DNA of 64,000 nt from Candidatus Wirthbacteria bacterium (GCA_903889905.1 CAISZI010000046.1:64853-128852); one strand, 5' to 3'. Counted from the stretch's first letter, positions 37,906-64,000 are shown. Translations and numbers: made by a program. The notes: a model not told the origin generated them from the letters alone.

Positions 37906-39119
37906 ACACCGCTCAAATCATCCAGGCTGAACACGATTTTCTCGCCCCGACCTATACCCGTCCGCCCTTTGTGCTCAATAGCGGCAAAGGCTGCTATCTG
38001 GAGGACACGGATGGCAAGCGCTACCTCGACACCGGTGCCGGCATAGCGGTCAACGCGCTCGGCTATGGTGACGACAGTCTTGCACGAGCCATGCAACAGA
38101 GCGCCATCGGACTGATCCACACCTCCAATTTGTACTACAACGAACCCCAAATACAGCTCGCCCAAATGCTTGTCAAGAATTCCTTCGCCGACAAAGTCTT
38201 CTTCGCCAATTCCGGCACCGAAGCCAACGAAGCCGCAATCAAATTTGCCCGCAAATTTCAGGTTGAAAATGGCAACCCTGACCGCAAAGACATCATCGCC
38301 TTTTACGGCAGCTTCCACGGCCGCACCATGGGCGCTCTGGCGCTTACGGACAGCGAAAAATACCAAGCTCCCTTTCGCCCGCTCATGCCCGGCGTCACCT
38401 TTGCCGAGTTCAACGACATGGCCTCTGTGCGACACAAAATCAGCAAGCATACCGCCGCAATAATCATCGAACCCATCCAGGGCGAGAGTGGCATTCACCT
38501 CGCCACCACCGCGTTTCTCCAAAACCTGCGCCAGCTTTGCACGGACCAAGGCATCTTGCTCATCTGCGATGAAGTCCAATGTGGCCTGGGCCGTACCGGC
38601 AAGCTCTGGGCTCACCAGCACGCCAGCATCACACCCGACCTCATGACCATTGCCAAACCGCTCGCGGCCGGACTTCCGCTTGGCGCCGTGCTCATGATCG
38701 ACCAGGTTGCGAGCGCCATGCATACAAGCGAACACGGAACGACCTTTGGCGGAGGTCCTTTTGTCTGCAGTGTCGCGTTGCATGTTCTCCAAAGATTATG
38801 CGACCCAAAATTCCTGTCCCACGTCCAAACAACTGGCGAAGATCTCATGACCAAACTCAAACAGCTCCAGTCTCCACTGCTCAAGGAAGTTCGGGGGATG
38901 GGGCTGATGATCGGCGTAGAACTTACCATCGACGTGGGCAAAGTCAAAAAATTGGCCTACGAGCAAGGCTTGATCCTGATTCAAGCCAGGGACAATGTGC
39001 TCCGACTGATCCCCCCGCTGATTTGGGGAAAAGCGGAAACCGAAGCACTCCTCAATCGATTGACCGGATTACTTATTCCAGAACTCATCGCTATCGAGCA
39101 AAATGGACGTCAGCCGTAA
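37902..39119 (+). CDS. argD: Acetylornithine aminotransferase (class III PLP aminotransferase)
   Basis: GSFHGRT...; LICDEVQCGLGRTGK PLP-lysine motif; start overlaps the argB stop. Confidence 0.9.
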   Translation: MNTAQIIQAEHDFLAPTYTRPPFVLNSGKGCYLEDTDGKRYLDTGAGIAVNALGYGDDSLARAMQQSAIGLIHTSNLYYNEPQIQLAQMLVKNSFADKVFFANSGTEANEAAIKFARKFQVENGNPDRKDIIAFYGSFHGRTMGALALTDSEKYQAPFRPLMPGVTFAEFNDMASVRHKISKHTAAIIIEPIQGESGIHLATTAFLQNLRQLCTDQGILLICDEVQCGLGRTGKLWAHQHASITPDLMTIAKPLAAGLPLGAVLMIDQVASAMHTSEHGTTFGGGPFVCSVALHVLQRLCDPKFLSHVQTTGEDLMTKLKQLQSPLLKEVRGMGLMIGVELTIDVGKVKKLAYEQGLILIQARDNVLRLIPPLIWGKAETEALLNRLTGLLIPELIAIEQNGRQP

Positions 39120-42100
39120 ACGATCCATGCCTTGCTGCAACAAACTGACAAAATACTGTTCACCGGCGCTGTCTGTACCGCGCTCCAAAATTTGCTGGTA
39201 CTGCTCCTGCACATATTTGGCATTAAATTCATATGAAATAAAAAAGTCACGGATCACCTGCTGCTTGGTTTTGACACCATCATTGATGACACTGGTCCAG
39301 TACGCCATACCATTGGGCTCACCGGCCCGATTCATGAAATTCAAGTAAAGCGCCTGCATAAAACTTGTCGTATTCTGATCTAAAAACTCCGGTGCATCGA
39401 CAAAGTTGGCGATCAGGTCTGTTTTGCTAAGCCCCTGCAACATTTGGGTGGTCCAGTAACTTAGTCCAGCTGGATCGGCATCACGCTGCATAAAAGTATG
39501 ATAAATATTCTGCACATAATTGCGGTAATCCTCTTCTGTATTGAGATAAGCACGGATGATACCCAGTTTCGTTGCCTGACCACTTAACAACCGGTTTTCC
39601 CAGTAGGACAATCCATTGGGATCCGCATTGCGGCCAAGCACCCGGGTATACATGCGTTTGACAAAACTGTACGCACGCACCTCGCCAAGCGGTTTGATAT
39701 TGCTGACAATCACGGTAATGTCATTACTATTCCCGGCCACGTCCATCATGCTAAAAGTAAAATTCCCGTTTTGCGTAAAGCTGTAGCTAAAACTACCACC
39801 GTTATTCGTCATCGTCACGGGTTCATTGGCCGTCACTGTTACCACGACCGGGCCCAATGTCGGCTCGGTGGTGGAGTACATCGTATTGAGCAGTTGCGGA
39901 CGGGTATAATCAATACCGCTGATTTCCGCTGACGGCAGATAGTCACTGTTCCCATTGCCATCCGTCGCGCGAAAACAAACGACTTTTCCATTATCCGATT
40001 CTGCGGTAAAAACGATTGCGTGCTGATCGATAAAGCCACTACCGCTGCAATCTTCCTGCTTGTTCGCCAGGACTTTAAGCATCAAAGTACCGTAGTTGAC
40101 GACGGCAGAAACCACCTTGCCATGCGCGGGAGTCAGTGTTGGGTCCGTGATCTGGATGACTGGCAAGGCAGCGGCGATTCCCGCGATCGCGACGGAAAGT
40201 TGATAATCATGATTGCCGAGACTATCGAAGGCGTAATAACAGACCCGCTTGCCATTATCGGCGACATTGCTGAAAGTCAGGCTTTGATAGGTACCAAAGG
40301 TTAATGTTGCGTCACAGACCGCACCTGTCGTCACCGCTTGCGTCAAAGTGCCTTTATTGGCACTGGCTGTGATTGTTTTGGTCGTGGCAAGGGAGCTATC
40401 CGGAGCATGAATGGTGATGACTGGTTTGGTGATGTCGATGTTAATGGGATAAGCCGACGCCAGCTCGCTCGCATTATGTGAAGCATCTTCACCATACAGG
40501 CAAAGATACTGGCCATCGTGCGTTTGATCGGTTTGATTCATGCTGTCGCTGTCGACATGATCGTAATCGCTGGCGCTGACTGAACAGGTCGTATTGATGT
40601 TATATTTCCATTTTTTTACACTGGCGTCGCCCCAGCTTGCCGCGATCGTGTCACTGAGAACTGGTCCCTGCGCCACATTGTCGGTAAAGCTCAAAGTGGG
40701 CGGGATCACGTCCATATTTTGTGCTGCCACCACCGCCTGATAGGCATTCAGCCGTTTGCCGCCAATCACTTTGCTGGACAGGCTGGCAAGCACGTCGCCA
40801 GTCTGCAGTAGAGCCGTTTTGATATTGCTGGCCGAAAGGTCCGGTCGCATACCCATCATCATGGCGACTGTGCCCGCAACATAGGGCGTGGCCATCGAGG
40901 TGCCATCTTTAAAAACATAAGACCCCACTGCAGCGGCGGTGTCATAAAGGTTGAGATTGTCGATGTAGCAGGCATCGTTGGGCTTGTCTCCGCCAGCGGC
41001 ATCGGTATGCCAGACAAAGCGGACCCGAAAAGCAGACCCGGCATAATTGCTCAAATCAAACGTGGTGGTACCAGAACCATAGCTGGGTGCAAAACCCAGG
41101 ACTCCCCAGGTTGTCCCATTGGCCGACGCTTGCATTTCAAGGTAATCGGGACTGGTATGGGTAGCGCTGATCAGGGCAATGTCACAACGGTAATCAAATT
41201 TAATATACCCGCCCCCATAACTCATGGCATTGGAAGTCAGGATTGAGTCCACTCCAGCACGGTAGTTGGGATAGCTAGCATCACTATAAAGCACCGTGTT
41301 GTTGGTAATGTTAGAGTGATACGTGGCCCATGTACCACTTCCCGTTTGGGTGAAATACGTACCCAGTCCCGGGGGTGTTACCGATTCAAAATTTTCAGTC
41401 ACTGCAATATCCGGCACTGTACTCAAAATCGTTTGACCAGGCGCAGCCAGATCCACCGTGGTGGCGCCATAATCGGAAAAGGAACTGAGTTGATCGCTGG
41501 AATTTGATGCGGCAACAACGATTACGTTACCCAAACCTGGCCCCGCCGGAGAGGTGGACTTGAAGCCAGCCGGATAGTCGACATAAGCACCGCCCAGATC
41601 ATGATTATAAGCTGAATTTCCGGCTGCTGCCACAAACAATCCCGGGAATCCCGCAATCGCGTTATACATGGCCTGGTCGATGGAGACATCACCATAGCCA
41701 CCAAAACTGGCATTGATCACCTTGGCGCCATTGACACCGGCAAAATGAATGGCCTGCACAATTTGAGCGGTAGACAGGTCGGTCTTGAGCGCCATGATTC
41801 TGGCATTGGACGCTATGCCGGCCACACCAATGCTATTGTTAATTTGCGCGGCAATAATCCCGGCCACATGTGTCCCATGATCACTGCTGGTGGGTAAAGG
41901 AATCTTGTCATTGTCTTCAAAGTCATAACCATGCTGGCAACCTCCTAATGCAGCGCCTTGATCATCCAGACAGCTACTACCATCCCACATACTGGCAAGT
42001 AAATCCGGATGATTGTAAGCAACGCCAAGGTCAATCACAGCCACAGTCACTGCCGGAATGCTATTGCCTGCCTGACTCCATGCCTGCGGCCCATCAATAT

Positions 42101-42560
42101 CAGCATCGTTCGTGCCAGCAGTGCCATTCACACTTTGGCCCGTGTTATCCAGTCCCCACAGTGAACTGGCATAGGTATCGTTGGTGCCCAACGCGGATTC
42201 ACGATATTGATAATTGGGTTGGGCATATTCAACCAGCGGATCGTTTTGCAGTTCTTTGACTTTATCAGCCACCGATTTGCCATCATCAATTTTAGCAACA
42301 CTCATCTGGGTGCTGACCTGATCAAGACGGATCAGTTTGTGCCAGTTTTCACTACTCATGGCCTGCGCGGAATCGACCGTAACACCTTGACCGGATTTGT
42401 ATTTGATCAGTACTTCGCCGTCTTTGTAGGGAGGCAGAGATTGTGTCGTTGTCGTAAAAGTCGAAAAACCCGTTTTTTGCTCACCCTGCACCGGCAAGAC
42501 AAAGAGAAAAAGACTGAGCAAACCTGCAATAAAACACGTCAAACCCTTTTTGGTACCCAT
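39069..42560 (-). CDS. Large secreted subtilisin-like (S8) serine protease with a long beta-rich middle region and C-terminal DUF4214 repeats
   Basis: Signal peptide; catalytic triad contexts VIDLGV(D), HGTHVAGII(H), GTSMATPYVAG(S); three C-terminal repeats of the ...DADPAGLSYW... type. 1163 aa. Convergently overlaps the argD 3' end by 51 nt. Confidence 0.85.
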   Translation of the reverse strand: MGTKKGLTCFIAGLLSLFLFVLPVQGEQKTGFSTFTTTTQSLPPYKDGEVLIKYKSGQGVTVDSAQAMSSENWHKLIRLDQVSTQMSVAKIDDGKSVADKVKELQNDPLVEYAQPNYQYRESALGTNDTYASSLWGLDNTGQSVNGTAGTNDADIDGPQAWSQAGNSIPAVTVAVIDLGVAYNHPDLLASMWDGSSCLDDQGAALGGCQHGYDFEDNDKIPLPTSSDHGTHVAGIIAAQINNSIGVAGIASNARIMALKTDLSTAQIVQAIHFAGVNGAKVINASFGGYGDVSIDQAMYNAIAGFPGLFVAAAGNSAYNHDLGGAYVDYPAGFKSTSPAGPGLGNVIVVAASNSSDQLSSFSDYGATTVDLAAPGQTILSTVPDIAVTENFESVTPPGLGTYFTQTGSGTWATYHSNITNNTVLYSDASYPNYRAGVDSILTSNAMSYGGGYIKFDYRCDIALISATHTSPDYLEMQASANGTTWGVLGFAPSYGSGTTTFDLSNYAGSAFRVRFVWHTDAAGGDKPNDACYIDNLNLYDTAAAVGSYVFKDGTSMATPYVAGTVAMMMGMRPDLSASNIKTALLQTGDVLASLSSKVIGGKRLNAYQAVVAAQNMDVIPPTLSFTDNVAQGPVLSDTIAASWGDASVKKWKYNINTTCSVSASDYDHVDSDSMNQTDQTHDGQYLCLYGEDASHNASELASAYPINIDITKPVITIHAPDSSLATTKTITASANKGTLTQAVTTGAVCDATLTFGTYQSLTFSNVADNGKRVCYYAFDSLGNHDYQLSVAIAGIAAALPVIQITDPTLTPAHGKVVSAVVNYGTLMLKVLANKQEDCSGSGFIDQHAIVFTAESDNGKVVCFRATDGNGNSDYLPSAEISGIDYTRPQLLNTMYSTTEPTLGPVVVTVTANEPVTMTNNGGSFSYSFTQNGNFTFSMMDVAGNSNDITVIVSNIKPLGEVRAYSFVKRMYTRVLGRNADPNGLSYWENRLLSGQATKLGIIRAYLNTEEDYRNYVQNIYHTFMQRDADPAGLSYWTTQMLQGLSKTDLIANFVDAPEFLDQNTTSFMQALYLNFMNRAGEPNGMAYWTSVINDGVKTKQQVIRDFFISYEFNAKYVQEQYQQILERGTDSAGEQYFVSLLQQGMDRLRLTSILLDSDEFWNK

Positions 42561-42779
42561 CTTTTCTCATTTTTGTTTTTAAGCCTTCATTTAATTATAC
42601 CGCAACCTCCATTATTTCTCCATCTAATCATCGCTGTCCCACACAGTGACAATGCTGAGCACAACAGCAAAATCAAGTTGTCGGTTACCACTCCAGTACC
42701 TAACCCAGTCATACTAAATAGTTTTGTTCATTTATACACAAAAACCACTCATCAAAGAAAGTTTGAGCCTTCCCCTGCT

Positions 42780-45700
42780 TTACTCGCCAGGAGTAATCAC
42801 CTTGCCTGCTTGACTCAACACCGTCCCGACGATTTGGCCATACTGCACTACCATTTCCGGAGAAAAATGCAATGCTGACAGGGTAGAATTGAGGGAATTG
42901 AGCATGCTCACTAATGATTCGATGCCTCCTTCAATCCGATTGCGATGGCTCCAGCTCAGCAAATCGGCCAGCAACCCGTCCAGCGAAACATTCTCACTGG
43001 TATATCGATCCGGTTCTTGCACCTTGAATTTTTCATCCAATAAGTTGGCCATCATCTCCACGTTCCTGCTGACCACGGCTAACATCAACCCAAAGTACAA
43101 ATCCCAGTCTTCTGCCTTGAACTCAACAATTTCGCCAAAATCAAGCAAAGATGTCTGCTCTCCATTGACCATTAAATTTCCGGGATGTAAATCGCGCGGA
43201 TAGCGGTGTCCCTGTTTCATGACTTCCACCATCTGCCCAAGTGCTTTCATGATTTGTAGGGCCAGGGTCGGATTGTTTTCAACATCCTCTCCCACCATTG
43301 ACGGTTGCTTCACTGCATCACTGCTTATCTGTGCCAACGTCTTGCCTGCTATTTTTTGCATAATCAAAACGCGTTTGTCTGGCACACTGTTCACCGCAGG
43401 GATACCGAGATCAAGGCCAAGCGCTCTTACCTGATTGGCATACCACTGCATATTAGTCGCTTCATGTCGCATATCGATCGACCCTTCCAACTCCCGGAAC
43501 AGATCCTGCAGTAAACTGTCAATATCCACTTTCACAATGCCCTGTTGGTGTAACTTGGCAAAAATGGTGGTGGCGTAATTCTTGAGTTTTCCTAGATGAC
43601 GTTTGGTTAAATGCAAACGCACAATTTTGGCAACTTTGGTCACCTTATCCTCTTGTCCGTGAGCGGATTTGGGTAGCAATTCCACAACCGTGGCCTTACT
43701 GGCACTGCCCAATACCTTGCCAAATCCATCGAACTGCCCAGTCAATCCCAACTGCCGGAATAAATCCATCAAAGCTGATTTGGATATATCAGGTAAGTCA
43801 TCATAGAACGTCTGCAACTCACCCCGCAGGCCGGCGTCCTGTATCAAACTGGCATTCTGTCCCGCGATCCGTCCCAACAAGTCGCCGGCGGAAAGCATCA
43901 TGGCAATCAATTCCGACTTCGTCGGTCGACGCTCACTTTCTGCATCGAACCGGATCACCAACTCGACAAATTGCGCCAGGAGCTCGGCCCGATCTTCGGG
44001 CGTGACACTGCCAAAGACTGTCTCCAACACCGTCTGCAGTGTTTGCTTTTCTGTTGCACTCCATGTCTCAGATGTCGCAGCTTCGCCAGAATCCGTTGGC
44101 GATGGTGTTGTGTAATAATCGACGATATCGTGCAACCATTTCAACCCCGCTGTGGCAAAGTTTTCGGCTGTCATAAAGCCATTGTTGCTGACTGCCAGTC
44201 GATAGACAATCTCGCGCACTTCACTGTGACTGGCAGTGCGAAACAATTTACCCAGGGAATTAAAACTGAGCGTTTTGATCTCACCCGAAACTCCGCTCAG
44301 GCTATCTGCCAGAAACGAAACAGTACCTGTTTCATCATCTGAGGGAATCACAAAAACCAGATTGAGAAAATCCACTGCATAAATTTCCCCATTTTTACTA
44401 CTTTTGCCGGAACCTCTTTGCAATGATGCCCCTAACTGTTTTCCAAGACGCTCATGGTGCTTAGTAAACTCTGTCAGCCGCTGTTCAAAAGTGGAAACTC
44501 TCGACCGCCTGCGTTGCAGTTCTGGTTCGTTATTGGGATGCAGAAACACGAGCAACAGTTCGATGATTTCATCCAAAGCTACGGCGATTTCTGCAGCAGT
44601 GAATTTGGGATTATTTTTGTTAATATCCCGAACCCCATCTGAAAGACGCTTCTGCAACAATCCTGCCAAATTGGATCGGACGCGCGGAGTAAAAAAATCT
44701 TTTGTAATATCCTGCGGACACAACACGTGCTCACGTCGATCCAACAAAAATGTCATCATGTCCGCATTGTTCTGAGGAGGCTGATGGTCAGCCAATCCCG
44801 AAAGCAATCCCAGCCCATACCCCCGTGCTGCCAAGGTGTCGATATTCGTTGCATAATTATAACCAATTTGCAGTTGTCGCGCCTTTTGAATTTGTTCCCA
44901 GGTGGCAGAATGGGTTCGCAATAACTGTTCAATTATATTGTCTCTCGCAGAGTTCGGCTCAGGTAAATATTTTTCGACAATCGCCATCAGCTGCATTAAA
45001 TCATTGCTGGCGTTGTGGTCCAATTCCAGCATGGTCAATTTCACACCCAGATGGGCTTTTAATTCAGGTCCATGGCTCAAATCCCAAGCTGCTTTGCATA
45101 CCGCCAAGGAATCTTCGTCCGCGGCCAACGGTTGGTTGCGATAAAGATAATCAAACAGAAGTTGTCCAATCAATAAATCCCGATACAAAGAAGACGGCAT
45201 GTATGCTTCAATCTGAGCCATTGTCTCAAACAAATCCCAACCCTGTTCGATCTGTTTGTTAAAAAAATCAGTATAAACATTTTTTCTTCTGATGCCATAG
45301 ACAAGCGATTTTCGCGCAACTTGTTTGAGGGCATCTTCCTTTGCAAGCTTTTCAACTTCGTGCTGGAAGCGGTAATGTAGTGAGTCATCATATTCAACCA
45401 ACATGCGCTCCTGCTGCAACGCTATGCGTTCGGACCAATCTGAAGAGCGCAAGGCAATATCGTATCGGAAACCGTCCAGGACAGGCATCAGCTTAATCAT
45501 ATCCGCAGAATCTCCCTCCTGCCTGTCAACCGCCGCATAATATGCCGGACTGAGTTGTCGCAACACGAAACGAGTTAGATCCAATCCCACTTCATCATCA
45601 TAACCCAAGAAATCGACCAGTTGATTGTCTTTATAGGCACAGGCTGGATAACGCTCCAATTGACGCATGCGAGTGATTGTATACACTTTCTTAGCGATTT

Positions 45701-48677
45701 TTTGTACCAGAGCAACCAGAGGTTTCCCCTCTTCCACGGTAATGATTTTTTGTCTCAATCCTGCCAATACCTTTAAGGGATCGTCCACGTCATCCAAAAT
45801 AGCGAGTATGCCGGCAACAATCTCAGGATCAAGCTCAGCAACTGGCAAAAAGCGCTCTTCAAACAGAGTACTAAGCCTATTGTATATGGCTGAAATTGCT
45901 TTCGAGTGCTCGTCACCACCTGGAACAAGGTCCAAAAATTGGCAAGCATGCGACAACATGTGTTCCCGCTGTGCAGCAGTCATCCCCTGTTTGTCCTGTA
46001 TTGTTTGTAAAATTGTCCCGGCTAAGCGCGCCGCCCATTCAGGGGTCATTTCGGCACGGGGGACATCTTTTAATTCCTTTGGCAGGCGATCTCCCCCGTC
46101 GGACCAAATCAACCCGAAATCCACCTCCTGATAACTTTCGGCATGTTTATTCCTGATGAGGTAAAGTTTGCTTTGTTTACCGTCAGATCGAGATGTACGG
46201 AACTGTTGTAATAAATCCCCTTTGTATCCCAACCAACCGCCAGCGGCGATGTAAGCATTCAGCTTTTCCAAATCGAGTTGACGGTTGTCACCATCCAGAC
46301 CAAGCGCCTGCTGCATCCAGTCATGATAGAACCGCTCGTCCAGATGCGCCCCAATCAGGGGCAAATACTGCTCGTACAATTCAATCCGACCCGCCGATTG
46401 CAAAATGGTAAATATCTGTTCCGTATCCAAACTGTGCTGACCTATCCCCAGATCAATGATTTGCCGGTAGGTGTCGACGGGCAGGGAAAGGCGATCACCC
46501 CGCTCTATGTTTTTCCCTTTGGAAGCAGGAAAAAAGCGCCGTATGAAACGATCCTGATTTGCTTTGCCCAGGGCCATACTTCCAGCTACCAGAGTGGCTA
46601 AATCCTCATTTCCCAAGTAAGCACCAGGAGCATCTGAATAGGTATCTGTCAACGTAACTGAGGTCGGATAACTGCCAGTATCCACCAGAATTCCACCCTC
46701 GCCTTCCAATTTCAGAACATTCGCCATGGGCAAAAGTTCAGATTCAAACCCCACAAATTGACTCAAATAATTTCCCAACGCTTGACCAAAACGACTAAAT
46801 CGTTTACCCGCAATCAGACGTTTGGAGTTGGCGTCCCCACGTTGAAATGCCAAAACGCGACGCTTTACAAGTTGTTGCAAATCCGCTGCTGCCAACGCAT
46901 CCATATCCGGGGAGCCCTTTAGCGCAGGCAAGTCCAGACCAGCCTCACGGCCGATTAGCTCCGTCAGATGATTGCGAATTGCCTCTGATTGCACTCCTTG
47001 ACGCTCCAGTGCAGCTATTAACGCTTGTTGAACACGCTGCCAATCCAGATCATGTTGCGACCGCAGCGTTGCATTGATCAAAGCCGTCGGCTTTCCTCTC
47101 TGGGCAGCCGCCTGCAACATATTCAAAGCGATCAAATCCTCAAATTGATCCAGCATCACCGTCAGATTGTCCCAGTTGATATCATATTTTTGATTGGCAA
47201 TCCTGGCTTGCCGTCTACCATAAGGATTCTCGTCATCTTCTTCATCGTCTGCTGACTTACTGCCCATACTTTCAGTCAAAATGTTAAAAATCTGTTCAGG
47301 TTCTCCCTGAATACCCAAAACATCCCACAATTCGCGATCGTAAGTTATTTTTTTTTGATCATAATGAAAAGTATCCCTCAGTGTACTCTGCCAGGTCCGC
47401 AGTCGGCTGAGCAAATCCTCTCTGCCAAACAGAAGCAGTTCTCCACCATCGATCGCCCGCATCCAGTCCACCAGACTACGATTCCCCAAACGGTTGCAGA
47501 CCTCTCTCGCCCGCATGAAATTATTCTCAAATCGGGTCCACCCACGCGCGTTCGGTTTTTCTTTGGACAATGGTTGAGTCATCACCTCGATACCCTGCGC
47601 ACGCATTTCCCGTAATTTGCGAAACAAATGCAAGCCATCGCGCTGCAACGGTAAATCCTCCCAATTAGCAAAATCGACATTATCTTGGTCAAACAGTTCA
47701 TCCCCTCTCTGGAGATGCTCAAACGCATGCCAACCGCTGATAAACAGCGCTCCAAAATCTGGCCGGTTGCTAAGTTCCAATGCAGCTTCCGCCTGATGCC
47801 AATCACCAATACCATAAGCCGCTTCCACTAGCTGGCTCAAACTGCCGGACTGGTCCAGCGTCGCTTCCGCATCCGGCAACGAACCAATGTGATAAACAGC
47901 TTCGTTTTGTTGGCGTTGGTGTTGTTCGACTTTGGCTAACTGCTGTAAAGCTTCTGCCGGCACTCGTATTGATCGCAAATCCCGACCATGCAGATAGAGT
48001 TGCGGATCTTGAGTAATCACCATTGCAGAATTCAAACGGTCAGATGTTCCCGGATGTGTTGGATTCAAATCCAGCTCGTCCTCACTGCCTGTTTGTTCCC
48101 GTTCTTGCTGAGATCGCTCACGCAGGAAACGGAAAGCCTTTTCCGCATCTTGGGCATTAAAAAACTGGGCACAACGCAGTAATGCTTCCACATCACAAAA
48201 CCGTTCACCAATAAACTGTCGCTCGGCACCCTCGTCACTATGAAAAAATTCATGCAGCTGCAACAATGCCAACATCCCATGGTTCAACTCAACCTTATGC
48301 GTACGTCTGACTTGTCCAAATTCACTCAGCTCCCGGATTGCTCCCGCCGACAGTACAATAAGCCGAGCCGAGGACACCGTCTCACAAACAAAAGCATCAT
48401 CCGCAACTACAACTAACTTGTAATGCTCTCCTGGCAAAACTTTTTCCATAATGCCCTGCAAAACAGCATAAATTGGTTGTTCTGCCGGAACCAGTTGCCC
48501 TTTTTCCCGATATTTTTCAAGTTCGCGCAGCGCTTGAAGCTCACTGACGGCTACGTTTCTTTTGTCATCAACAACCCGATCGAAGGCTTCCGCATCCAGG
48601 CTCAGTGGCTGTGAACGTTCCGACGTTGGCGCTAATTCTGCTATATTCTCCTGTTGGCGTGCTGGCTTACTCGGCAT
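42780..48677 (-). CDS. Giant 1965-aa cytoplasmic protein with an N-terminal HExxH (zincin/M48-like) region and a C-terminal ABC1/UbiB-type atypical kinase domain
   Basis: Uninterrupted ORF. N-terminus ...RLIVLSAGAIREL...LNHGMLALLQLHEFFHSDEG. The C-terminal 450 aa carry UbiB/ADCK motifs LGSASKATVVEL, (K)VAKIVRLH, EATNMQWY, DLHPGNLMV, LLDFGEI. No signal peptide or TM helix. Confidence 0.75.
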   Translation of the reverse strand: MPSKPARQQENIAELAPTSERSQPLSLDAEAFDRVVDDKRNVAVSELQALRELEKYREKGQLVPAEQPIYAVLQGIMEKVLPGEHYKLVVVADDAFVCETVSSARLIVLSAGAIRELSEFGQVRRTHKVELNHGMLALLQLHEFFHSDEGAERQFIGERFCDVEALLRCAQFFNAQDAEKAFRFLRERSQQEREQTGSEDELDLNPTHPGTSDRLNSAMVITQDPQLYLHGRDLRSIRVPAEALQQLAKVEQHQRQQNEAVYHIGSLPDAEATLDQSGSLSQLVEAAYGIGDWHQAEAALELSNRPDFGALFISGWHAFEHLQRGDELFDQDNVDFANWEDLPLQRDGLHLFRKLREMRAQGIEVMTQPLSKEKPNARGWTRFENNFMRAREVCNRLGNRSLVDWMRAIDGGELLLFGREDLLSRLRTWQSTLRDTFHYDQKKITYDRELWDVLGIQGEPEQIFNILTESMGSKSADDEEDDENPYGRRQARIANQKYDINWDNLTVMLDQFEDLIALNMLQAAAQRGKPTALINATLRSQHDLDWQRVQQALIAALERQGVQSEAIRNHLTELIGREAGLDLPALKGSPDMDALAAADLQQLVKRRVLAFQRGDANSKRLIAGKRFSRFGQALGNYLSQFVGFESELLPMANVLKLEGEGGILVDTGSYPTSVTLTDTYSDAPGAYLGNEDLATLVAGSMALGKANQDRFIRRFFPASKGKNIERGDRLSLPVDTYRQIIDLGIGQHSLDTEQIFTILQSAGRIELYEQYLPLIGAHLDERFYHDWMQQALGLDGDNRQLDLEKLNAYIAAGGWLGYKGDLLQQFRTSRSDGKQSKLYLIRNKHAESYQEVDFGLIWSDGGDRLPKELKDVPRAEMTPEWAARLAGTILQTIQDKQGMTAAQREHMLSHACQFLDLVPGGDEHSKAISAIYNRLSTLFEERFLPVAELDPEIVAGILAILDDVDDPLKVLAGLRQKIITVEEGKPLVALVQKIAKKVYTITRMRQLERYPACAYKDNQLVDFLGYDDEVGLDLTRFVLRQLSPAYYAAVDRQEGDSADMIKLMPVLDGFRYDIALRSSDWSERIALQQERMLVEYDDSLHYRFQHEVEKLAKEDALKQVARKSLVYGIRRKNVYTDFFNKQIEQGWDLFETMAQIEAYMPSSLYRDLLIGQLLFDYLYRNQPLAADEDSLAVCKAAWDLSHGPELKAHLGVKLTMLELDHNASNDLMQLMAIVEKYLPEPNSARDNIIEQLLRTHSATWEQIQKARQLQIGYNYATNIDTLAARGYGLGLLSGLADHQPPQNNADMMTFLLDRREHVLCPQDITKDFFTPRVRSNLAGLLQKRLSDGVRDINKNNPKFTAAEIAVALDEIIELLLVFLHPNNEPELQRRRSRVSTFEQRLTEFTKHHERLGKQLGASLQRGSGKSSKNGEIYAVDFLNLVFVIPSDDETGTVSFLADSLSGVSGEIKTLSFNSLGKLFRTASHSEVREIVYRLAVSNNGFMTAENFATAGLKWLHDIVDYYTTPSPTDSGEAATSETWSATEKQTLQTVLETVFGSVTPEDRAELLAQFVELVIRFDAESERRPTKSELIAMMLSAGDLLGRIAGQNASLIQDAGLRGELQTFYDDLPDISKSALMDLFRQLGLTGQFDGFGKVLGSASKATVVELLPKSAHGQEDKVTKVAKIVRLHLTKRHLGKLKNYATTIFAKLHQQGIVKVDIDSLLQDLFRELEGSIDMRHEATNMQWYANQVRALGLDLGIPAVNSVPDKRVLIMQKIAGKTLAQISSDAVKQPSMVGEDVENNPTLALQIMKALGQMVEVMKQGHRYPRDLHPGNLMVNGEQTSLLDFGEIVEFKAEDWDLYFGLMLAVVSRNVEMMANLLDEKFKVQEPDRYTSENVSLDGLLADLLSWSHRNRIEGGIESLVSMLNSLNSTLSALHFSPEMVVQYGQIVGTVLSQAGKVITPGE

Positions 48678-48776: not shown

Positions 48777-49028
48777 TCAATCCCCGTCTACAGGATGGTG
48801 TGAAAAGGCTAGAATACGGGCAATGCCCACGACCAGAGATACAAAGATCAAGGCAATACCAATTTTTCGCTTAAAAAGAAAAACCACCAGCGCGATCAGC
48901 ATCGTCAGCAGCCTGTGATCCGAAAGGGAACCCATTGTCCGCGGTGAAAGGGATAAGTGGCGCCACTTGGCGGGCTGAGGTAAAAGCCAATAAACAATAC
49001 CAGCTGCCACAAGACTTACCCCAAACAA
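48777..49028 (-). CDS. Small membrane ORF ending in a PAP2-like motif-3 (ARILAFSHHPVDGD); possible gene remnant
   Basis: ORF only; the C-terminal R-x5-H-x3-D spacing resembles the PAP2 phosphatase motif, but the other motifs are missing. Confidence 0.25.
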   Translation of the reverse strand: MFGVSLVAAGIVYWLLPQPAKWRHLSLSPRTMGSLSDHRLLTMLIALVVFLFKRKIGIALIFVSLVVGIARILAFSHHPVDGD

Positions 49029-49080: not shown

Positions 49081-50241
49081 TTAGAGGAATAGAAACACCC
49101 CGATCGCGACCAACGTGCACACTACCGCGAAACCAAATGTGGCTGCCGGCGCAAGCAGGGACCACAAAAAACCGCCGATGATCGAGGACAGCAGTGTCGC
49201 CAGACTGGTTATGGTATAAAACGTGCCATAGGCCGTGCCGGCTTTGTCCTGCGTCGTGAGCGAGCCAATCATAGCTTTGGAAATGCCGTCGGTAAAAGCG
49301 ATATAAAACCCGTAAATTCCAAACAATGCCCAAACCAGCAGTGGATTCGTATTAAACGCAAATCCGGCGTACACCAGAGCAAAGATCGCCAGGCCGATGA
49401 CCAGCACTTTGCGCGCCCCGATCCGGTCCGCCAGCCGTCCGGCCGGCGTGGAGGCCAGTGAATAAACCAGATTATAGAGAATGTAGGCCGAAATCACCGC
49501 GACCAGACTGAGCCCCAGCCCTTGGGAACGCAGGATCAAAAACGAGTCGGAACTGTTACCGAGCGCAAAAATTGTCATGCCCACCAGAAACAGTTTGAAC
49601 TCACGTGGCATTCCCCACAGTGACAGGCTGAGTTAAACTTTGCTCGAAAGAATTTTTGTGCGCGTATCCTGAATAAAAACAAAAAACAGCAAGCTGAGCA
49701 CCGCCGGAATCGTTGCCAGATAAAGCACTGTACGAAAATTATTATGCAGTAAATAAAGCAAAACCAGCGCAATCGTCGGCCCAATCACCGCGCCCAGCGA
49801 ATCCATGGAGCGGTGAAAGCCAAAGATAAAACCTTTGTTGGTGGCGTCGGTTTCTTCCAGCAGCAAGGCGTCACGCGCCCCAGTACGTGCACCTTTGCCC
49901 AGCCGGTCCACCGTCCTCGCCAGCAACACCATGGGCCAACTGCTGGCAAGCGCGATCAGTACTTTGGACAAAGCCGCAGCGCCATAACCGGAGACGACAA
50001 AAATTTTACGTTTCTGCAATTTGTCCGACCAGTAGCCAAAGATCGCCTTAAAAAAAGCCGCCATCCCTTCGGCAACACCTTCGATGATGCCCACCACAAA
50101 CACCGGAGCGCCCAACACCTGGGTTAAAAAAATAGGCATAATCGGATAGAGCATCTCCGACGCGGTGTCGTTGAACAGGCTGACCAGGCTGAGATACCAG
50201 ACGCGGCGAGGGATTTTGAGCTTGGATGCAGGCATGGGCAA
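49081..50241 (-). pseudogene. MFS transporter interrupted by a single in-frame TAA (minus-strand stop at 49635-49633); halves 49633..50241 and 49081..49611
   Basis: The two ORFs are in the same frame, separated by ...SSKV*LSLSLWGMPREFKL. Together they give a 386-aa, about 12-TM MFS-like protein. Confidence 0.6.
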
Positions 50242-57715: not shown

Positions 57716-58295
57716 TCAATCCCTTGCCCTTAAGAACCAGTGGCACATATTTTTCAATTCTTGCCACCCTGGTTTTGGCTTGTTTGGGAGCAGCGAAAAA
57801 GAGCAGATAGGCTCTTTGCCGCCCTGGTGTCAGGGCTTCAAACGCCTCTTGCAGGCCAGGTGTTTGCTCGAACTGATTGGTCAATTCTTCCGGTGTACTG
57901 AATTCTTCTGTCTTTTTGAGAGGCACTTTCAACCCGGCCTTTTCAACGGCAATGGCGTTCTCTATATATTTTTTCAAAATTAGCTCCAGCTCCACGATTT
58001 CCTGCGCACTGGTAAACCGGATCTGGCGTCCCGCCTGCACATTTTCCGTTTGCTGGATCAAGATGCCCTTCGGATCGTCCATCAGCACGCCTTTGACAAA
58101 CAACATCGCGCAATATTCCTTGAAACCATGGATGATGATGACGTTTTTACCCTCGATTGTGTAACAGGGTTGCCCCCATTTCAAGTCTTCGGTCAGTCCA
58201 GAGTCGAGGAGGATGGTTCTCAATTTAGATAATTCTTCCTGCCACTTTTTTGTTTTGCTCAAAAAGCCATCTACCTTGGGATTGGAATTATTCAT
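57705..58295 (-). CDS. DUF1801/YdeI(OmdA)-family protein
   Basis: C-terminus LTPGRQRAYLLFFAAPKQAKTRVARIEK matches the YdeI/OmpD-associated family signature. Confidence 0.5.
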   Translation of the reverse strand: MNNSNPKVDGFLSKTKKWQEELSKLRTILLDSGLTEDLKWGQPCYTIEGKNVIIIHGFKEYCAMLFVKGVLMDDPKGILIQQTENVQAGRQIRFTSAQEIVELELILKKYIENAIAVEKAGLKVPLKKTEEFSTPEELTNQFEQTPGLQEAFEALTPGRQRAYLLFFAAPKQAKTRVARIEKYVPLVLKGKGLNDR

Positions 58296-58395
58296 TGACT
58301 GAGCCTCCTAAAATAGTGAACGCAACACAGCCCGTGTCAGTATAAGTACTTGCGCAAGGATTATAGCACCCGAGCAATAAAAAATGCAGCCAGAG

Positions 58396-59592
58396 TTAGA
58401 TACTCAATCTCTCCAATACGGTCCGGACAAGGACCTCTCTGTCCTGCAAATGCAAAACGAGGTGGTCGTTACTCAATTGCACTGAGAACAAACCGGGATC
58501 GGTAAGGTACATCACCCAAACCAAATCCCATGGGCACATGTCGGCCCCACGAACCATTTTGTTTTCCTGATTCCACAACGGCAAATCCTTGCCAATAAAT
58601 TGAGTCATCGGCGTACGAATACTAGAAATTGCTGCTATTGTCCCATCACTAAGCCCGACTTTGAATACCTCTGTACCCATGGCGATTTGGTTGGCGCCCA
58701 TTTCATAGAGAGCAATGGCCGCATTATAATCCTGCAGTGCGTTAAACGAATACAAAAACCACCTGTCTTGATTGAGGTACGGACCTGACCGCACCACCAG
58801 GAAATCCCCGACTTTTTGTTTGAGCTCCGGATATTTACTGAATACTGCCGCAAAGTCAGTGACCGGTCCAAGCGCCACCAAGGTGACCCTCTGGTCACTG
58901 TTGCGAAGGGTCTTGGCAATATACTCAACCGCTTGTGAATTCTTCTGGCCAGCATATGACGCACCCTTGACCACAGGAATAGGGAGACCACTCAGGGCGA
59001 CCTGTTTCAGAGTAACCCGATAGGCTGTCTCTCCATCGATATTGCCAAACGTGGAGGTAATGCCAAGGATACTGAGTTGTCCGGCCTTTTCTGCCTGCAA
59101 CAGGACGGCCAATGCCAGACCGTCATCCTGTTCCGGCGCAATGAATGAAAATAGCCGGGCCGTTGTGGCATTGTCAGTGGAGATCAGGATCGGTTGTTTC
59201 GCAATGTTGGAGATGTCCGTGTTGATAACCGGTTGCCGAATATGAAGCCACGGATTAGAACGAGGATCTATCCATGCATTGAAAACCACAAACAAAACGA
59301 AAACAACGCATTCAATACCAATCAATCGACCAACAAAATGATTCTTTTTCTTTCGCTGCAACGCTATGATCAGCAATAAAAGGCCTGTCCCTGATATCAA
59401 CAAGGCATAATAAACTATCGCAAAGACAATACGCGCAGGCAACGAGTAAACTGCAAATATTTGACTGGTATTACCCAAGAAATTCAAAATCGTCCAAACA
59501 TGAAGAACCTGACAGACTTCCTTTAGACAGAATATGACAAAAAAGAGTAGAAAAAGACTAACAATCAACCACTTCAAAATTCTTCTTATCAT
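58396..59592 (-). CDS. Membrane-anchored nucleoside-hydrolase (IUNH)-like protein with a degenerate N-terminal Asp cluster
   Basis: 3 N-terminal TM helices; then ILISTDNATT...EQDDGLALAVLL and an IUNH-like alpha/beta core. Low certainty. Confidence 0.35.
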   Translation of the reverse strand: MIRRILKWLIVSLFLLFFVIFCLKEVCQVLHVWTILNFLGNTSQIFAVYSLPARIVFAIVYYALLISGTGLLLLIIALQRKKKNHFVGRLIGIECVVFVLFVVFNAWIDPRSNPWLHIRQPVINTDISNIAKQPILISTDNATTARLFSFIAPEQDDGLALAVLLQAEKAGQLSILGITSTFGNIDGETAYRVTLKQVALSGLPIPVVKGASYAGQKNSQAVEYIAKTLRNSDQRVTLVALGPVTDFAAVFSKYPELKQKVGDFLVVRSGPYLNQDRWFLYSFNALQDYNAAIALYEMGANQIAMGTEVFKVGLSDGTIAAISSIRTPMTQFIGKDLPLWNQENKMVRGADMCPWDLVWVMYLTDPGLFSVQLSNDHLVLHLQDREVLVRTVLERLSI

Positions 59593-59723
59593 GATGCCTT
59601 AGTTATTAAAAAGGGCGAAAGAAATGGAATCATGACGACAGACTACACAACTTTGCAATTCACAAGTGCTCTATTTGTCAGCGCCCTGACATATTTAATA
59701 CTAATTCTGTCAATCAATTCATT

Positions 59724-60863
59724 CTACTTCGCTACTGGCATCAGAAAAGTCGACAAATTATCTCTCGTCACCACAGAACTCACGCTTCCCGTATAGGTCT
59801 CCAAAAAAATCTTGGGAGTGTTATCTCTGACTTTTGAATTCCATTTACATTCGAACGCTGCCAATTTACCCTGACTTTCTTCAATCAGATCGATTTCCTG
59901 CTGGTCATACGTCCGCCAAAAGTAATAATTGGCGACCTTTTGGTGGTGATAGCCCGATTTGAGCCGTTCCGCGATGCAATAATTCTCCCAGATCGCTCCA
60001 ATATCGCCACGCACCGAGAGCGGATTGAAATTCTGGATCAGTGCGTTGCGAATTCCCAAGTCCCAAAAATAAATCTTGGTTGACTTACTGATCTCCTTGC
60101 GCAGGTTACGGCTAAAGGCGGACAGGTGGAAAATGACGAACGTCTTTTTGAGCAATTCCACATAACGTTGCACCGTGACGGTATTGAGTCCCAGTTGCTT
60201 CCCGATCTCCGCAAACGACACCTCACTCCCAACTTGCAGCGCAAGCAGCTGGAGAATTTTGAGTAGTTGTTCTGGTTTTTTGAGTTGTTCGTACTCCAGG
60301 ATGTCTTTATAAAGATAATTATTGGCGAGTTTTTGCAGATACAAGTCTTTGTCGCTGTCACTCAGATTGACAATGTCAGGATAGCTACCATACCTCAACA
60401 CTGCATCCAGCTGACTTTGCATATCAATCGGATTGCTTTGCGAGAGCAGCTCCTCATAAGAAAGAGGCAGGAGCAGATAGTCCAGAACGCGCCCCGTGAG
60501 CGGCTCATTGATCGTATTCGCCAGCTCAAAACTACTCGATCCCGTGGCGATGATCTGGGTATCCGGCAGATAAGTGTGCAATATTTTGAGCACCAAGCCG
60601 ATATCTCGAACTCTCTGCGCCTCATCCAGGATCAAGAGAGAAATATTGCCCAAAAACTGCTTCAGTTTGATCTCATCCTGCTGCTCCAGAGCTTCACGAT
60701 TGCGCAGAAGGTCGCAATCAATATAGCGAGATCCTTGTGGGTTATGATCTAGCATAGAACGCACCAGCGTCGTCTTGCCCACCTGCCGCGCACCATAAAT
60801 GACGATCACTTTCCCTTTGTGAAGTTGCTGCTCGATGATCGGTTGCAGGGTTCGTTGATACAT
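59724..60863 (-). CDS. COG1373-type AAA ATPase with a C-terminal DUF4143 (restriction-endonuclease-like) domain
   Basis: VIVIYGARQVGKTTLVRSML Walker A; Walker B LLILDEAQ; C-terminal DUF4143-like region; AT-rich codon usage. Confidence 0.75.
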   Translation of the reverse strand: MYQRTLQPIIEQQLHKGKVIVIYGARQVGKTTLVRSMLDHNPQGSRYIDCDLLRNREALEQQDEIKLKQFLGNISLLILDEAQRVRDIGLVLKILHTYLPDTQIIATGSSSFELANTINEPLTGRVLDYLLLPLSYEELLSQSNPIDMQSQLDAVLRYGSYPDIVNLSDSDKDLYLQKLANNYLYKDILEYEQLKKPEQLLKILQLLALQVGSEVSFAEIGKQLGLNTVTVQRYVELLKKTFVIFHLSAFSRNLRKEISKSTKIYFWDLGIRNALIQNFNPLSVRGDIGAIWENYCIAERLKSGYHHQKVANYYFWRTYDQQEIDLIEESQGKLAAFECKWNSKVRDNTPKIFLETYTGSVSSVVTRDNLSTFLMPVAK

Positions 60864-61018
60864 AAATCAACCTACTTAAATATTTATTTTTAGCTAAATT
60901 CATTTACTATGATAACAAAAATTAAGTACAAAACAACTGGCATCTTCCTCAAACACCCTTTCTACCGCTTTCTCGATAATGAACGGAATGAATGGTTTAA
61001 AACTCACGAATACAGAAA

Positions 61019-61042
61019 AAGATGGCGTCATGACGCCATCTT
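61019..61042. repeat. Copy A of a repeat family containing the perfect 24-bp palindrome AAGATGGCGTCATGACGCCATCTT
   Basis: Exact palindrome. About 30 bp of its upstream flank (GGTTTAAAACTCACGAATACAGAAAAA) and a downstream block GGTGGGCCATCTGTCCCAAAACTGGAACACCGTG (61118-61151) are shared with copy B. Lies about 156 bp upstream of the 60863 gene start. Confidence 0.7.
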
Positions 61043-61520
61043 GAGTTTACATTCTTATTTGGCGCAGCCATCCGTAGCTTGGCTACTTTTTTTAAAAAGG
61101 GAGCCTTCCCGAAGCGAAGGATGGTGGGCCATCTGTCCCAAAACTGGAACACCGTGGTGACCAAACTTAAATCAATTTACGACTTACAATCACTTATTTA
61201 TTACCCAAAATCCCCAATAACGGAAATCAAACTATATTTTGGATCTTTTAACTGTCATCATCGTTGCTATTATGCCTGAGAACAAGTTTGATAAGTCTTA
61301 GTAATGCCCTCATCCTTATGCCATGCTTCCAAATCAGACAGTTCTTCATTGAACTACTTCTTGTATATTTATTTGTAGTCCAATACCGCCTTGTCGTTCA
61401 GAGTAAACAATACTTTTATGCAACAAACACCAAAATTGTTTTGCTCTAATCACGAACTTAAAACTATACCTTTATTGGTCGCTGTATCTTCTTGATTGTT
61501 GAAAGAACCTCTTTAATCCC

Positions 61521-62183
61521 CTATTTACCCCCCAATTCTGAGCCCTGAATTACCTCACTCATTGGATCCACTTCCTTAGCTGCTTCTTGACTATTTTTAG
61601 CATAAGAATCAAATGCCTCAGTTATAACTTCAAAAGGCTTCTCTGTATTACAATTACTATAATCATATGTTTTCCTCATTGAACGTTTGATATCACTCGG
61701 TATATCAAGTGGAAACAATTCCTCTGTCTCTGAAGTCAATCGTCCATCAGGTCCGTATTGATATTCACATTTTGTCTCCGCTCGCACCAAGACGCCTTTA
61801 TCGATAATTCTCCAATAAGAATGTCTCTCAACTAATCTCCCGTCCTGATCGTAAACCCAAGCACGAATTGGTTCGTGATTTGGGTTACGCTTATGAAATT
61901 TTTCTTCAACACGGAGTCGCCCATCAGGATTATGACGTAATCTATACTTGAAATGATTTATCAATCCAGGATCAATATCAGGATAACATTTTTTGTTTGC
62001 TTCCCAACTAAAATGGCCAACCCATGCCCAAAACATTTCTACTTCTCTAAGGTTGACTCCAGGATAGCGAACACCGGGCTCTACATTAGTAGTTGTAATA
62101 GCATCAGAGTCGACACCAATAGCATTCATTTTTTGTCTAAAAACTTGATCAAATTTACTATCTGATAATGTAGACGCCATCAT
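61521..62183 (-). CDS. Small protein (220 aa) with three YD/RHS-like repeats (Y.YD.DGRL), in an AT-rich island
   Basis: NPDGRLRVEE, WVYDQDGRLVERHSY, EYQYGPDGRLTSE match the YD-repeat core (YDxxGRL). Followed by about 480 bp of AT-rich non-coding DNA. Confidence 0.5.
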   Translation of the reverse strand: MMASTLSDSKFDQVFRQKMNAIGVDSDAITTTNVEPGVRYPGVNLREVEMFWAWVGHFSWEANKKCYPDIDPGLINHFKYRLRHNPDGRLRVEEKFHKRNPNHEPIRAWVYDQDGRLVERHSYWRIIDKGVLVRAETKCEYQYGPDGRLTSETEELFPLDIPSDIKRSMRKTYDYSNCNTEKPFEVITEAFDSYAKNSQEAAKEVDPMSEVIQGSELGGK

Positions 62184-62356
62184 TTATTCCTATAAATAAG
62201 AAGAATATTTAGTCTTTAATTATATAATAAAATATTTATTTATCAATACCGGAAGTTAAAAAAACTAGTACAAAAAACCTCGCCCACCCTTTGATGGCTT
62301 TAATACGCCATTTCGTCTAGACTTTGGACAAGTGGCTTAAATTCTCAAAAACAAAA

Positions 62357-62380
62357 AAGATGGCGTCATGACGCCATCTT
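62357..62380. repeat. Copy B of the 24-bp palindrome repeat family
   Basis: Same exact palindrome. About 110 bp from 62300 are similar to copy C. The downstream block GGTGGACCAGCTGTCCCAAAACTGGAACACCGTG lies at 62527-62560. Lies about 174 bp upstream of the 62183 gene start. Confidence 0.7.
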
Positions 62381-62622
62381 TTGCCAATGTACTGCTTTCC
62401 CTTCCGTTCCGAGGACGGAACTTCAGGGACCCCAATGAATAAGTACTTCTAAACGCGAGGACTTGTTAAGCAGTACTTTATAAATTTCATCTAAGTTCGA
62501 AGACTCACTAAGATTCTCTTTATGGTGGACCAGCTGTCCCAAAACTGGAACACCGTGCTAACCTGTTTATCCCGATTATCCAACACAATTAGTTACTGTT
62601 TGCCTGGAATGACGGAATCGCG

Positions 62623-63798: not shown

Positions 63799-63830
63799 GG
63801 TGATATTATAGCATCTGAAGTATTTATTTT

Positions 63831-63876
63831 GTCAATCAATTGACATATAAAGTACTTTATATGTCAATTGATTGAC
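63831..63876. promoter_or_regulatory. Perfect 46-bp palindrome (GTCAATCAATTGACATATAAAGTAC|GTACTTTATATGTCAATTGATTGAC) overlapping the -35 region of the DUF4143 ATPase gene
   Basis: Exact reverse-complement symmetry over 46 nt; contains TTGACA on both strands. Positioned 33-78 bp upstream of the ATG at 63798. Confidence 0.8.
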
Positions 63877-63992: not shown

Positions 63993-64000
63993 ATGCCAAT

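Follow-up and report, generated by a model that had tools for sequence, protein, structure and literature searches.

A rare giant bacterial protein combining a predicted compact M48-type protease head, a long helical region and a divergent UbiB/ABC1 domain

M48 proteases and ABC1 kinases are both well-known classes of enzyme, and the switching-on of latent M48 proteases is an active question. In Escherichia coli BepA, where the zinc site and its switch have been defined experimentally, E201 is the third zinc ligand and H246 is a fourth, a reversible 'histidine switch' that keeps out the catalytic water; H246 is conserved across M48, including OMA1 and ZMPSTE24 (bioRxiv 10.1101/2020.07.07.192476). 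The role of the UbiB/ABC1 family is still debated between ATPase, lipid kinase and protein kinase. ATPase activity in this family is raised by lipids and phenols (bioRxiv 10.1101/149823), and an alanine-to-glycine change in the nucleotide-loop triad is reported to give COQ8A protein-kinase activity, in the A-to-G/K-to-H double mutant at a cost in ATPase activity (PMC8956952; bioRxiv 10.1101/149823). The soluble mycobacterial proteins Rv3197/MABP-1 and MSMEG_1954 are ATPases to which macrolides bind (PMC6208485, PMC8696161). M48 proteases and ABC1 kinases are found in one place on plastoglobules, where PGM48 occurs alongside several ABC1Ks (ABC1K1/3/6/7) (PMC8956952, PMC12223511), and on the lipid droplets of Synechocystis, which carry sll1280, three ABC1Ks and a subtilisin-like protease (PMC12223511, PMC8956952). 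An early survey of prokaryotic kinase architectures recorded ABC1 fusions only with Usp and RIO1 (PMC1262709), and a full-text literature search, a scope that takes in papers and leaves domain-architecture databases outside it, returned no description of a fused M48-ABC1 protein. The subject here is a gene in a 64,000-nucleotide stretch of DNA from a Candidatus Wirthbacteria bacterium (GCA_903889905.1, CAISZI010000046.1:64853-128852; the window) that encodes a protein of 1965 residues, the giant protein, which very probably consists of an M48-type zinc protease, a helical protein of ~1200 residues and a UbiB/ABC1 domain in that arrangement. It is classed as a member of an M48-ABC1 fusion family, a new architecture built from known kinds of domain.

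The giant gene occupies positions 42780..48677 on the minus strand, where all of the features described for it also lie, as one open reading frame (ORF) of 1965 codons plus stop, uninterrupted and with an ATG start. A purine-rich, Shine-Dalgarno-like stretch, AGGTAGGG, lies just 5' of this ATG, and the GC content of the gene (48.0%) is slightly lower than the window mean (50.3%). That this is a genuine single gene is well supported: the single uninterrupted frame described in the first-pass annotation, an earlier reading of the window, was recovered unchanged, and nine collinear relatives argue against an artefact. The same annotation had described the protein as free of transmembrane helices and repeats, and both descriptions held. 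The highest 19-residue Kyte-Doolittle window scores 1.94 and includes Asp and Glu residues, and self-BLAST of the protein found no internal repeats. The N-terminus is hydrophilic and has no signal peptide, so that the protein, which also has no transmembrane helix, should be soluble and cytoplasmic, judging by sequence.

The family to which the giant protein belongs was visible only to an exhaustive phmmer search, in which residues 1-1200 were compared with 1.84 billion cluster representatives. This search found 13 relatives (E 1.8e-28 to 3e-4) aligned over residues ~25-330 at 22-29% identity. A word-indexed homologue search with the whole protein returned only the query, one with residues 1200-1965 returned nothing, and the same kind of search with the family alignment returned the query and one UbiB of 535 residues. 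The family comprises 14 cluster representatives among the 1.84 billion, in keeping with the earlier view that such a fusion is unusual. Nine of the 13 relatives are 1771-1924 residues long, share the same three-part architecture and are collinear end to end with the giant protein, which indicates that the architecture is conserved and is not an assembly artefact. A pattern-limited scan of 185,579 species genomes with a five-sequence alignment found one locus, and a pattern scan of genome contigs with the giant protein alone found nothing; in metagenomes, the five-sequence alignment found the DNA of the same locus and one partial locus (L004). The one complete homologous locus (L002/L003) encodes the relative P0003 in 'MAG: bacterium isolate ELA345' (44% GC), and P0003 was read independently twice, from a 34-kb contig of a metagenome-assembled genome (MAG) and from a 37.5-kb metagenome contig. 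The genomes that carry family members have GC contents of 34%, 44% and 50%, and tblastn against plasmids and phages gave no family match. The family is well supported as a set of very rare bacterial proteins of ~1800-1950 residues in three parts.

The N-terminal module conserved in this family spans residues 25-330 (47688..48605), as delimited by phmmer and by AlphaFold2 (AF2), and consists of an M48-like core with a helical extension. The core, a compact M48-type zincin at residues ~60-225 (48003..48500) recognised by hhalign, Foldseek and, in relatives, Pfam, contains three motifs. The first, HEFFH (residues 142-146; 48240..48254), is the only HExxH in the giant protein, is present in 14/14 sequences and is predicted to supply two zinc-binding His residues and the catalytic Glu. 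The second, GERFCD (residues 157-162; 48192..48209), contains E158, the predicted third zinc ligand, and D162, both of which are invariant. The third, NPTHPG (residues 205-210; 48048..48065), aligns with BepA T245-H246-P247 and is followed by R214; H208 within it is the predicted equivalent of the M48 'histidine switch'. When the giant protein was shuffled with its composition preserved, 7.3% of the shuffles contained a single HExxH by chance, so the motif alone is weak evidence and the support for a zinc site comes from the family. Overall identity within the 14-sequence N-terminal alignment is ~22%, yet none of the 14 sequences departs from G112, A137, H142, E143, H146, E158, D162, H208 or R214, and T207 is conserved in at least 90% of the alignment.

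Comparisons of profile and of fold both lead to M48. The Pfam Peptidase_M48 (PF01435) gathering threshold of 20.3 bits was exceeded at the equivalent N-terminal position by seven of the 13 relatives, namely P0013 (39.7 bits, E 5.8e-10), P0011 (33.8), P0007 (26.9), P0014 (24.7), P0010 (21.9), P0005 (20.8) and P0006 (20.5), with P0008 (19.8) and P0003 (19.6) just under it; these matches span only profile positions ~12-81 of 186. An hhalign comparison of the 14-sequence alignment with E. coli BepA gave 93% probability (E 3.5e-7), pairing H142/E143/H146 with BepA H136/E137/H140, E158 with E201, D162 with D205 and H208 with H246. The AF2 model of residues 1-343, built from the same alignment, was confident (predicted local distance difference test, pLDDT, 79.7; predicted TM-score, pTM, 0.70) and places a three-strand sheet at residues 87-110, the HExxH helix at 133-147 and the Glu helix at 157-172. 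Foldseek of this model against the PDB placed BepA first (6ait_E, probability 0.97, E 0.018), followed by BlaR1 and minigluzincins, and against BFVD it retrieved phage M48 peptidases (probabilities 1.00 and 0.97; best E 1.8e-3). NCBIfam gave nothing relevant for the N-terminal domains of the family; among P0002-P0014, the domain of one relative matched the chlamydial 'CT360 family protein' weakly (E 4e-4). The head is well supported as a compact M48-type gluzincin with a predicted complete zinc site (H142, H146 and E158) and a predicted catalytic residue, E143. The M48-like head proposed by the first-pass annotation therefore stands at the level of the family, by Pfam in 7/13 relatives, by hhalign to BepA and by Foldseek, and does not stand on the giant protein's own sequence, in which the hidden Markov model (HMM) search found no Peptidase_M48.

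BepA and other M48 enzymes (YcaL, LoiP, HtpX, OMA1, Ste24, PGM48) share with this head an edge strand followed by the HExxH helix, the third-ligand Glu within an N-E-x-x-x-D motif (N200-E201-Q-E-A-D205 in BepA), a T-H-P-x-x-x-x-R motif whose His is the auto-inhibitory fourth ligand (H246 in BepA), and a helical region after the protease domain, which in BepA is a TPR domain. The head differs from BepA in that 11 rather than about 60 residues separate HExxH from the Glu helix and in that the lid and plug elements are absent. It differs from M48 enzymes more widely in belonging to a protein predicted to be cytoplasmic and soluble, whereas M48s are periplasmic or membrane-embedded, in having a sequence that falls under every M48 HMM threshold, and in being fused to about 1600 more residues, including a kinase domain. 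Minigluzincins (proabylysin 4jiu, projannalysin 4jix and selecase 4qhi) and the M56 protein BlaR1 resemble it in their small soluble M48/M56-type core, and their target-normalised TM-scores in the Foldseek list were 0.35-0.54, which are weak matches with E about 1. They are ~100-residue stand-alone archaeal proteins or membrane sensors, in contrast to the giant protein, and the sequence motifs of the head agree better with BepA-type M48 than with either.

At the other end of the protein, a UbiB/ABC1 atypical kinase-like domain, including an N-terminal KxGQ domain, occupies residues 1548-1879 (43041..44036) according to Pfam, hhalign and a PDB profile search. Pfam PF03109 (ABC1) matched residues 1682-1878 of the giant protein at 50.9 bits (E 1.5e-13), above its gathering score of 22.9 bits, and matched the C-terminal fragment alone at 54.0 bits; all of the full-length relatives (9/9) carry ABC1, at 68-104 bits where listed. 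Pairwise BLASTP against E. coli UbiB was too insensitive, and hhalign was used instead, with a C-terminal profile made from residues 1545-1965 of ten full-length family members. Its alignment with E. coli UbiB (99.1% probability, E 1.5e-18) spans 304 columns and UbiB residues 14-343, and so takes in the KxGQ lid domain (IKFGQ). In a search of the PDB with the whole-family profile, the nearest solved structures were the ABC1 proteins 5yjz (E 7e-11) and 7cy2 (E 5e-9), which from their PDB names and two papers are taken to be the soluble mycobacterial ABC1 ATPases Rv3197/MABP-1 and MSMEG_1954. The UbiB/ABC1-type kinase domain of the earlier annotation is upheld by these matches, and the strings that it had quoted (LGSASKATV, VAKIV, EATNM, DLHPGNLMV and DFG) are all present at residues 1656-1849.

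In this domain, GRIAGQ (residues 1602-1607; 43857..43874) stands at the position of the KxGQ motif, with an Arg one residue before the altered Lys, and LGSASKATV (residues 1656-1664; 43686..43712) forms the nucleotide-binding loop. VAKIVRL (residues 1682-1688; 43614..43634) contains K1684, the ATP-binding Lys, and R1687, and HEATNM (residues 1738-1743; 43449..43466) contains E1739, the alpha-C Glu. The catalytic loop, RDLHPGNLMV (residues 1828-1837, with D1829 and N1834), is aligned by hhalign with HADMHPGN of UbiB, and LDFGE (residues 1845-1849, with D1846) with IDCG; together they occupy 43131..43196. All ten full-length family members have K1684, R1687, E1739, D1829, N1834 and D1846, of which all but R1687 are matched by hhalign to their UbiB counterparts, and with these residues kept the domain looks catalytically competent, as far as its sequence can indicate. 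The C-terminal tail past the kinase core (residues 1880-1965; 42783..43040) is soluble and is without the transmembrane helices of E. coli UbiB.

Relative to UbiB, COQ8 (ADCK3) and the ABC1Ks, the domain has in common the Pfam ABC1 match, a KxGQ lid domain N-terminal to the kinase core, the VxK..RP Lys, the E..N, HxDxHPGN and DFG-type motifs, and the lack of an activation loop (PMC8956952). It differs in having no transmembrane anchor, in its G-S-A-S loop in place of A-[AS]-A-S (ASAS in UbiB), in the Ile that replaces the KxGQ Lys, and in forming the C-terminal ~420 residues of a 1965-residue chain rather than a stand-alone protein of ~500 residues. At the KxGQ position the relatives have K-x-G-Q in five cases and K-x-A-Q in four, where the giant protein has R-I-A-G-Q. 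The mycobacterial ABC1 ATPases, which are soluble, of ABC1 type and the nearest in solved structure, have ATPase activity and a small hydrophobic ligand (PMC6208485, PMC8696161), but are single-domain proteins of ~450 residues associated with macrolide resistance, with neither a protease nor a giant helical region. An assignment to UbiB proper was considered and rejected: the protein reaches 28 bits with the TIGR01982 equivalog, whose cut-off is 487.55, is 1965 rather than ~500 residues long, has no transmembrane segment, and has no quinone gene among the neighbours scanned. What the protein carries at its C-terminus is a divergent ABC1 domain rather than UbiB itself.

The nucleotide loop departs, across the family, from the Ala-rich form (AAAS/ASAS) toward the canonical Gly-rich loop. 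It reads G-S-A-S in the giant protein and is G-G-G-S-like in most relatives, and the third position of the loop triad is Gly in six of the ten family members. The shift is in the direction of the Gly-rich form with which COQ8A becomes a protein kinase, and by analogy the giant-protein family may be a more kinase-like variant of UbiB.

Between the two catalytic ends lies a central region (residues 331-1544; 44046..47687) that is predicted to be all-alpha and in which, as had been noted earlier, no domain is recognisable. Pfam on 350-residue windows gave no family, a PDB profile search gave nothing credible, and neither AF2 nor Foldseek identified a domain. The AF2 model from ten sequences is almost all helix (pLDDT 55, pTM 0.41), with islands of higher confidence at residues 733-813, 873-923, 993-1043, 1143-1343 and 1473-1523, and Foldseek matched it to generic HEAT/TPR-like solenoids only (TM-score at most 0.14). 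In the family alignment, conserved islands fall at residues ~500-600, 750-800, 1000-1050, 1150-1350 and 1450-1544. Family profiles also showed a recurring unit of ~30 residues with the motif [YF][LM]PxxSxxRDxxI, present in three copies (residues 1010-1020, 1159-1169 and 1237-1248; 44934..45650); the segments holding two of the copies (residues 1120-1215 and 1216-1345) aligned with each other in hhalign at 92% probability (E 5.6e-7), and the first copy, at residue 1010, aligned with the others weakly (32%). From these predictions the most that can be said is that the central region is a conserved helical scaffold. Matches to TALE repeats and to a Kdo-transferase within it were weak and were set aside as noise, and a Walker-A-like 'GSGKSS' near residue 1415 was rejected by eye for its wrong spacing and the poor conservation of the segment.

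A mechanism coupling these three parts can be proposed by analogy. The protease would be held latent as in BepA, H208 taking the position of the catalytic water on the zinc. The UbiB module would bind ATP and probably a small hydrophobic ligand, and could work as an ATPase or, with its Gly-richer loop, as an autophosphorylating kinase; its use as an ATP-driven switch responsive to lipids or small molecules is suggested by the activation of COQ8/UbiB and by the macrolide-binding MABP-1. A conformational change dependent on nucleotide or ligand would then travel through the helical scaffold, which could also offer a substrate-binding surface, and the protease would be released or positioned, resulting in ligand- or ATP-gated proteolysis of a cytoplasmic target. 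This coupling of a latent M48 protease through the scaffold to the UbiB module is tentative and, on balance, doubtful. For the explanation as a whole, in which the firmer domain identities and the coupling are blended, our confidence is evenly divided.

Several observations weigh against this explanation. The communication between the two catalytic ends is something that we infer, and the neighbourhoods of the window, L002 and L004 pointed to no substrate, ligand or partner and contained no conserved operon. The giant protein's sequence alone gave no peptidase match (Pfam to E <= 10, NCBIfam and PDB), so the M48 assignment rests on the family. It is also the most divergent member at the motifs, with HEFFHSD in place of the consensus HELSHWD, and its spacer of 11 residues between HExxH and Glu, against 60 in BepA, makes the head a stripped-down rather than a typical M48. 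The E-values of the fold searches are weak (0.018 in the PDB and 1.8e-3 in BFVD) and the TM-scores modest. The model of the central region is of low confidence (pLDDT 55), and in the C-terminal domain the Lys of the 'invariant' KxGQ is Ile, the Gln being kept.

The explanation that best survives beside gated proteolysis is that both ends are active but independent, the protein being a scaffold or assembly platform, for example in lipid or quinone metabolism like COQ8 and the plastoglobule ABC1Ks, that also bears a housekeeping protease, with no gating between them. The conservation of both catalytic sites, with nothing linking them, fits such an arrangement, as does a middle resembling a generic helical scaffold, and a part in organising lipid-biosynthetic complexes, rather than in signalling, has been proposed for UbiB proteins (bioRxiv 10.1101/149823). 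The order and length of the three parts are, however, strictly kept in every full-length member, which speaks for selection on the combination itself; moreover, no quinone or isoprenoid genes were recognised among the neighbours scanned, and the giant protein has no membrane anchor. Independent ends are considered unlikely.

It is improbable, too, that the giant protein is a translocated effector or toxin, exported into a eukaryotic host or a competitor, in which protease and kinase would strike their targets independently and the helical middle would serve in targeting or translocation. The great size of the protein and the rarity of its family (14 clusters among 1.84 billion and one locus among 185,579 species genomes) are what might be expected of an effector, and hosts of 34, 44 and 50% GC with unconserved neighbourhoods suggest a patchy or horizontal distribution, to which the slightly lower GC of the giant gene (48.0% against a window mean of 50.3%) and one relative's weak match to the chlamydial CT360 family (E 4e-4) can be added. 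The protein nevertheless lacks a signal peptide, neither a secretion signal nor a chaperone is recognisable, the window ORFs that were scanned included no recognised secretion-system gene, the trp, arg and metal-resistance genes of the window are typical of a free-living chromosome, and the tblastn search of plasmids and phages was empty. To our knowledge, UbiB-type domains are not known as effector kinases.

A patchy distribution would equally suit a single-gene anti-phage or conflict system with a STAND/Avs-like layout, in which the helical region senses, the kinase or ATPase switches and the protease acts as the abortive-infection effector. The combination of a protease, a long helical region and a nucleotide-dependent module does resemble defence proteins, and PADLOC-DB returned two matches on the giant protein, to PD-T4-6 (21.8 bits) and MkoA (10.1 bits), the former a weak match to the kinase region (residues 1721-1849, E 2.2e-5). 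That match covers the generic kinase core only, however, and no defence model fits the whole protein; Pfam detected no P-loop or STAND NTPase, the scanned neighbours are housekeeping and transport genes rather than a defence island, and tblastn found no family gene in phages or plasmids. A role in defence is rated very improbable. The idea that the HExxH is a chance or degenerate motif in an oversized UbiB-like protein, or the ORF an assembly or fusion artefact, draws on the 7.3% of shuffles with a lone HExxH, the lack of a peptidase HMM match in the giant protein's own sequence and a stop codon in the adjacent gene of the major facilitator superfamily (MFS), which hints at local decay or error, but it is largely refuted by the invariance of four zinc-site residues, D162 and R214 in 14/14 sequences at ~22% identity, by relatives over the M48 cut-off with profile and fold comparisons both giving M48, and by nine independent full-length homologues of the same architecture from other samples, one of them read from two contigs.

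A conserved natural fusion of this kind offers a single-polypeptide system, with both predicted catalytic sites intact, in which coupling is directly testable. Co-localisation has so far been the only ground for a functional link between ABC1 kinases and M48 proteases, and the fusion adds genomic support of an independent kind. In plastoglobules and their cyanobacterial counterparts the M48 protease and the ABC1 kinases are separate proteins on a lipid droplet, unlike the fused domains here, and are likened to them by enzyme class and not by orthology; the subtilisin-like protease of the cyanobacterial droplets is likewise set apart from the S8 protease gene beside the giant gene, whose product looks secreted and whose adjacency is unconserved. 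As a long shot, the fusion could be read as a 'Rosetta stone', indicating that UbiB/ABC1 domains are direct ligand- or ATP-driven regulators of M48 histidine-switch proteases. If so, the partnership would exist in trans, for example between ABC1Ks and PGM48 on plastoglobules and in cyanobacterial lipid droplets and possibly also between COQ8-type proteins and OMA1 in mitochondria; the biochemical output of the UbiB family would be the gating of a protease, M48 would gain an activation mechanism, and the domain, in this family with its Gly-richer loop, would be more than an ATPase, namely a true autophosphorylating kinase. The ~1200-residue conserved helical middle is in either case sequence space without a recognisable domain. 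If coupling is absent, the proteins would still form a new, very rare multidomain family, though one of modest general importance.

Downstream of the giant gene on the same strand lies a gene for an S8 protease of 1163 residues (39069..42560, minus strand; Pfam). The N-terminus of this protease resembles a signal peptide and its prodomain is of fervidolysin type; the S8 domain is matched in two stretches, and four DUF4214 repeats lie at the C-terminus. The two genes are separated by a 219-nt spacer (42561..42779, minus strand) that contains a promoter-like site, TGGAGA-17-TATAAT, at 42622..42594. The first-pass annotation was right about the strand, the length and the probable secretion of this neighbour, and the adjacency on which it remarked is absent at the one complete homologous locus. 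An operon with the S8 protease was rejected in view of the 219-nt gap, the promoter-like site of the S8 gene's own and the lack of an S8 gene beside the L002 homologue. No S8 gene is found at L002, where the scanned neighbours resemble none of those scanned in the window, and the neighbours at the partial locus L004 (34% GC) are different again. A search for orthologues and a shared setting, suggested with the earlier annotation, thus yielded 13 relatives but no neighbourhood conserved among the window, L002 and L004. With no conserved operon partner, the adjacency looks incidental and the S8 neighbour looks to be outside the system.

The window otherwise has the content of an ordinary chromosome, including trp genes, argC/B/D, CopA, ABC exporters and a two-component kinase; the near neighbours of the giant gene that were scanned are arg genes, a split MFS gene, ArsP and the S8 protease. 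The MFS gene, just upstream of the giant gene (49081..50241, minus strand), consists of two same-frame ORFs of 202 and 176 residues separated by one in-frame TAA, with the next ATG 7 codons on, and for both ORFs the match is to the first half of the MFS_1 profile. The interruption may mean a pseudogene, an error of sequencing or a genuinely split 6+6 transmembrane transporter. Between the MFS gene and the giant gene is a hydrophobic ORF of 83 residues (48777..49028, minus strand) ending ...ARILAFSHHPVDGD, which by eye is reminiscent of a PAP2-type phosphatase C-terminal motif; the ORF may be a gene remnant.

Elsewhere in the window, a 663-residue TrpD-TrpC fusion (anthranilate phosphoribosyltransferase and indole-3-glycerol-phosphate synthase; 12517..14508, minus strand) adjoins TrpE (15091..16665), and another ORF of 663 residues (7172..9163, minus strand) matched no Pfam or NCBIfam model at the thresholds applied. 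GC content drops to 41-45% over 58001..64000, against about 51% in most of the window. An identical ArgD and the argC-argB-argD order were found on short contigs in two other assemblies, L001 (ENA ERZ18626762 scaffold_13851) and ERZ1426681, in both of which the contig ends, after argC-argB-argD, in a partial gene on the minus strand. The identical ArgD in other metagenome assemblies indicates that the source organism has probably been sampled more than once.

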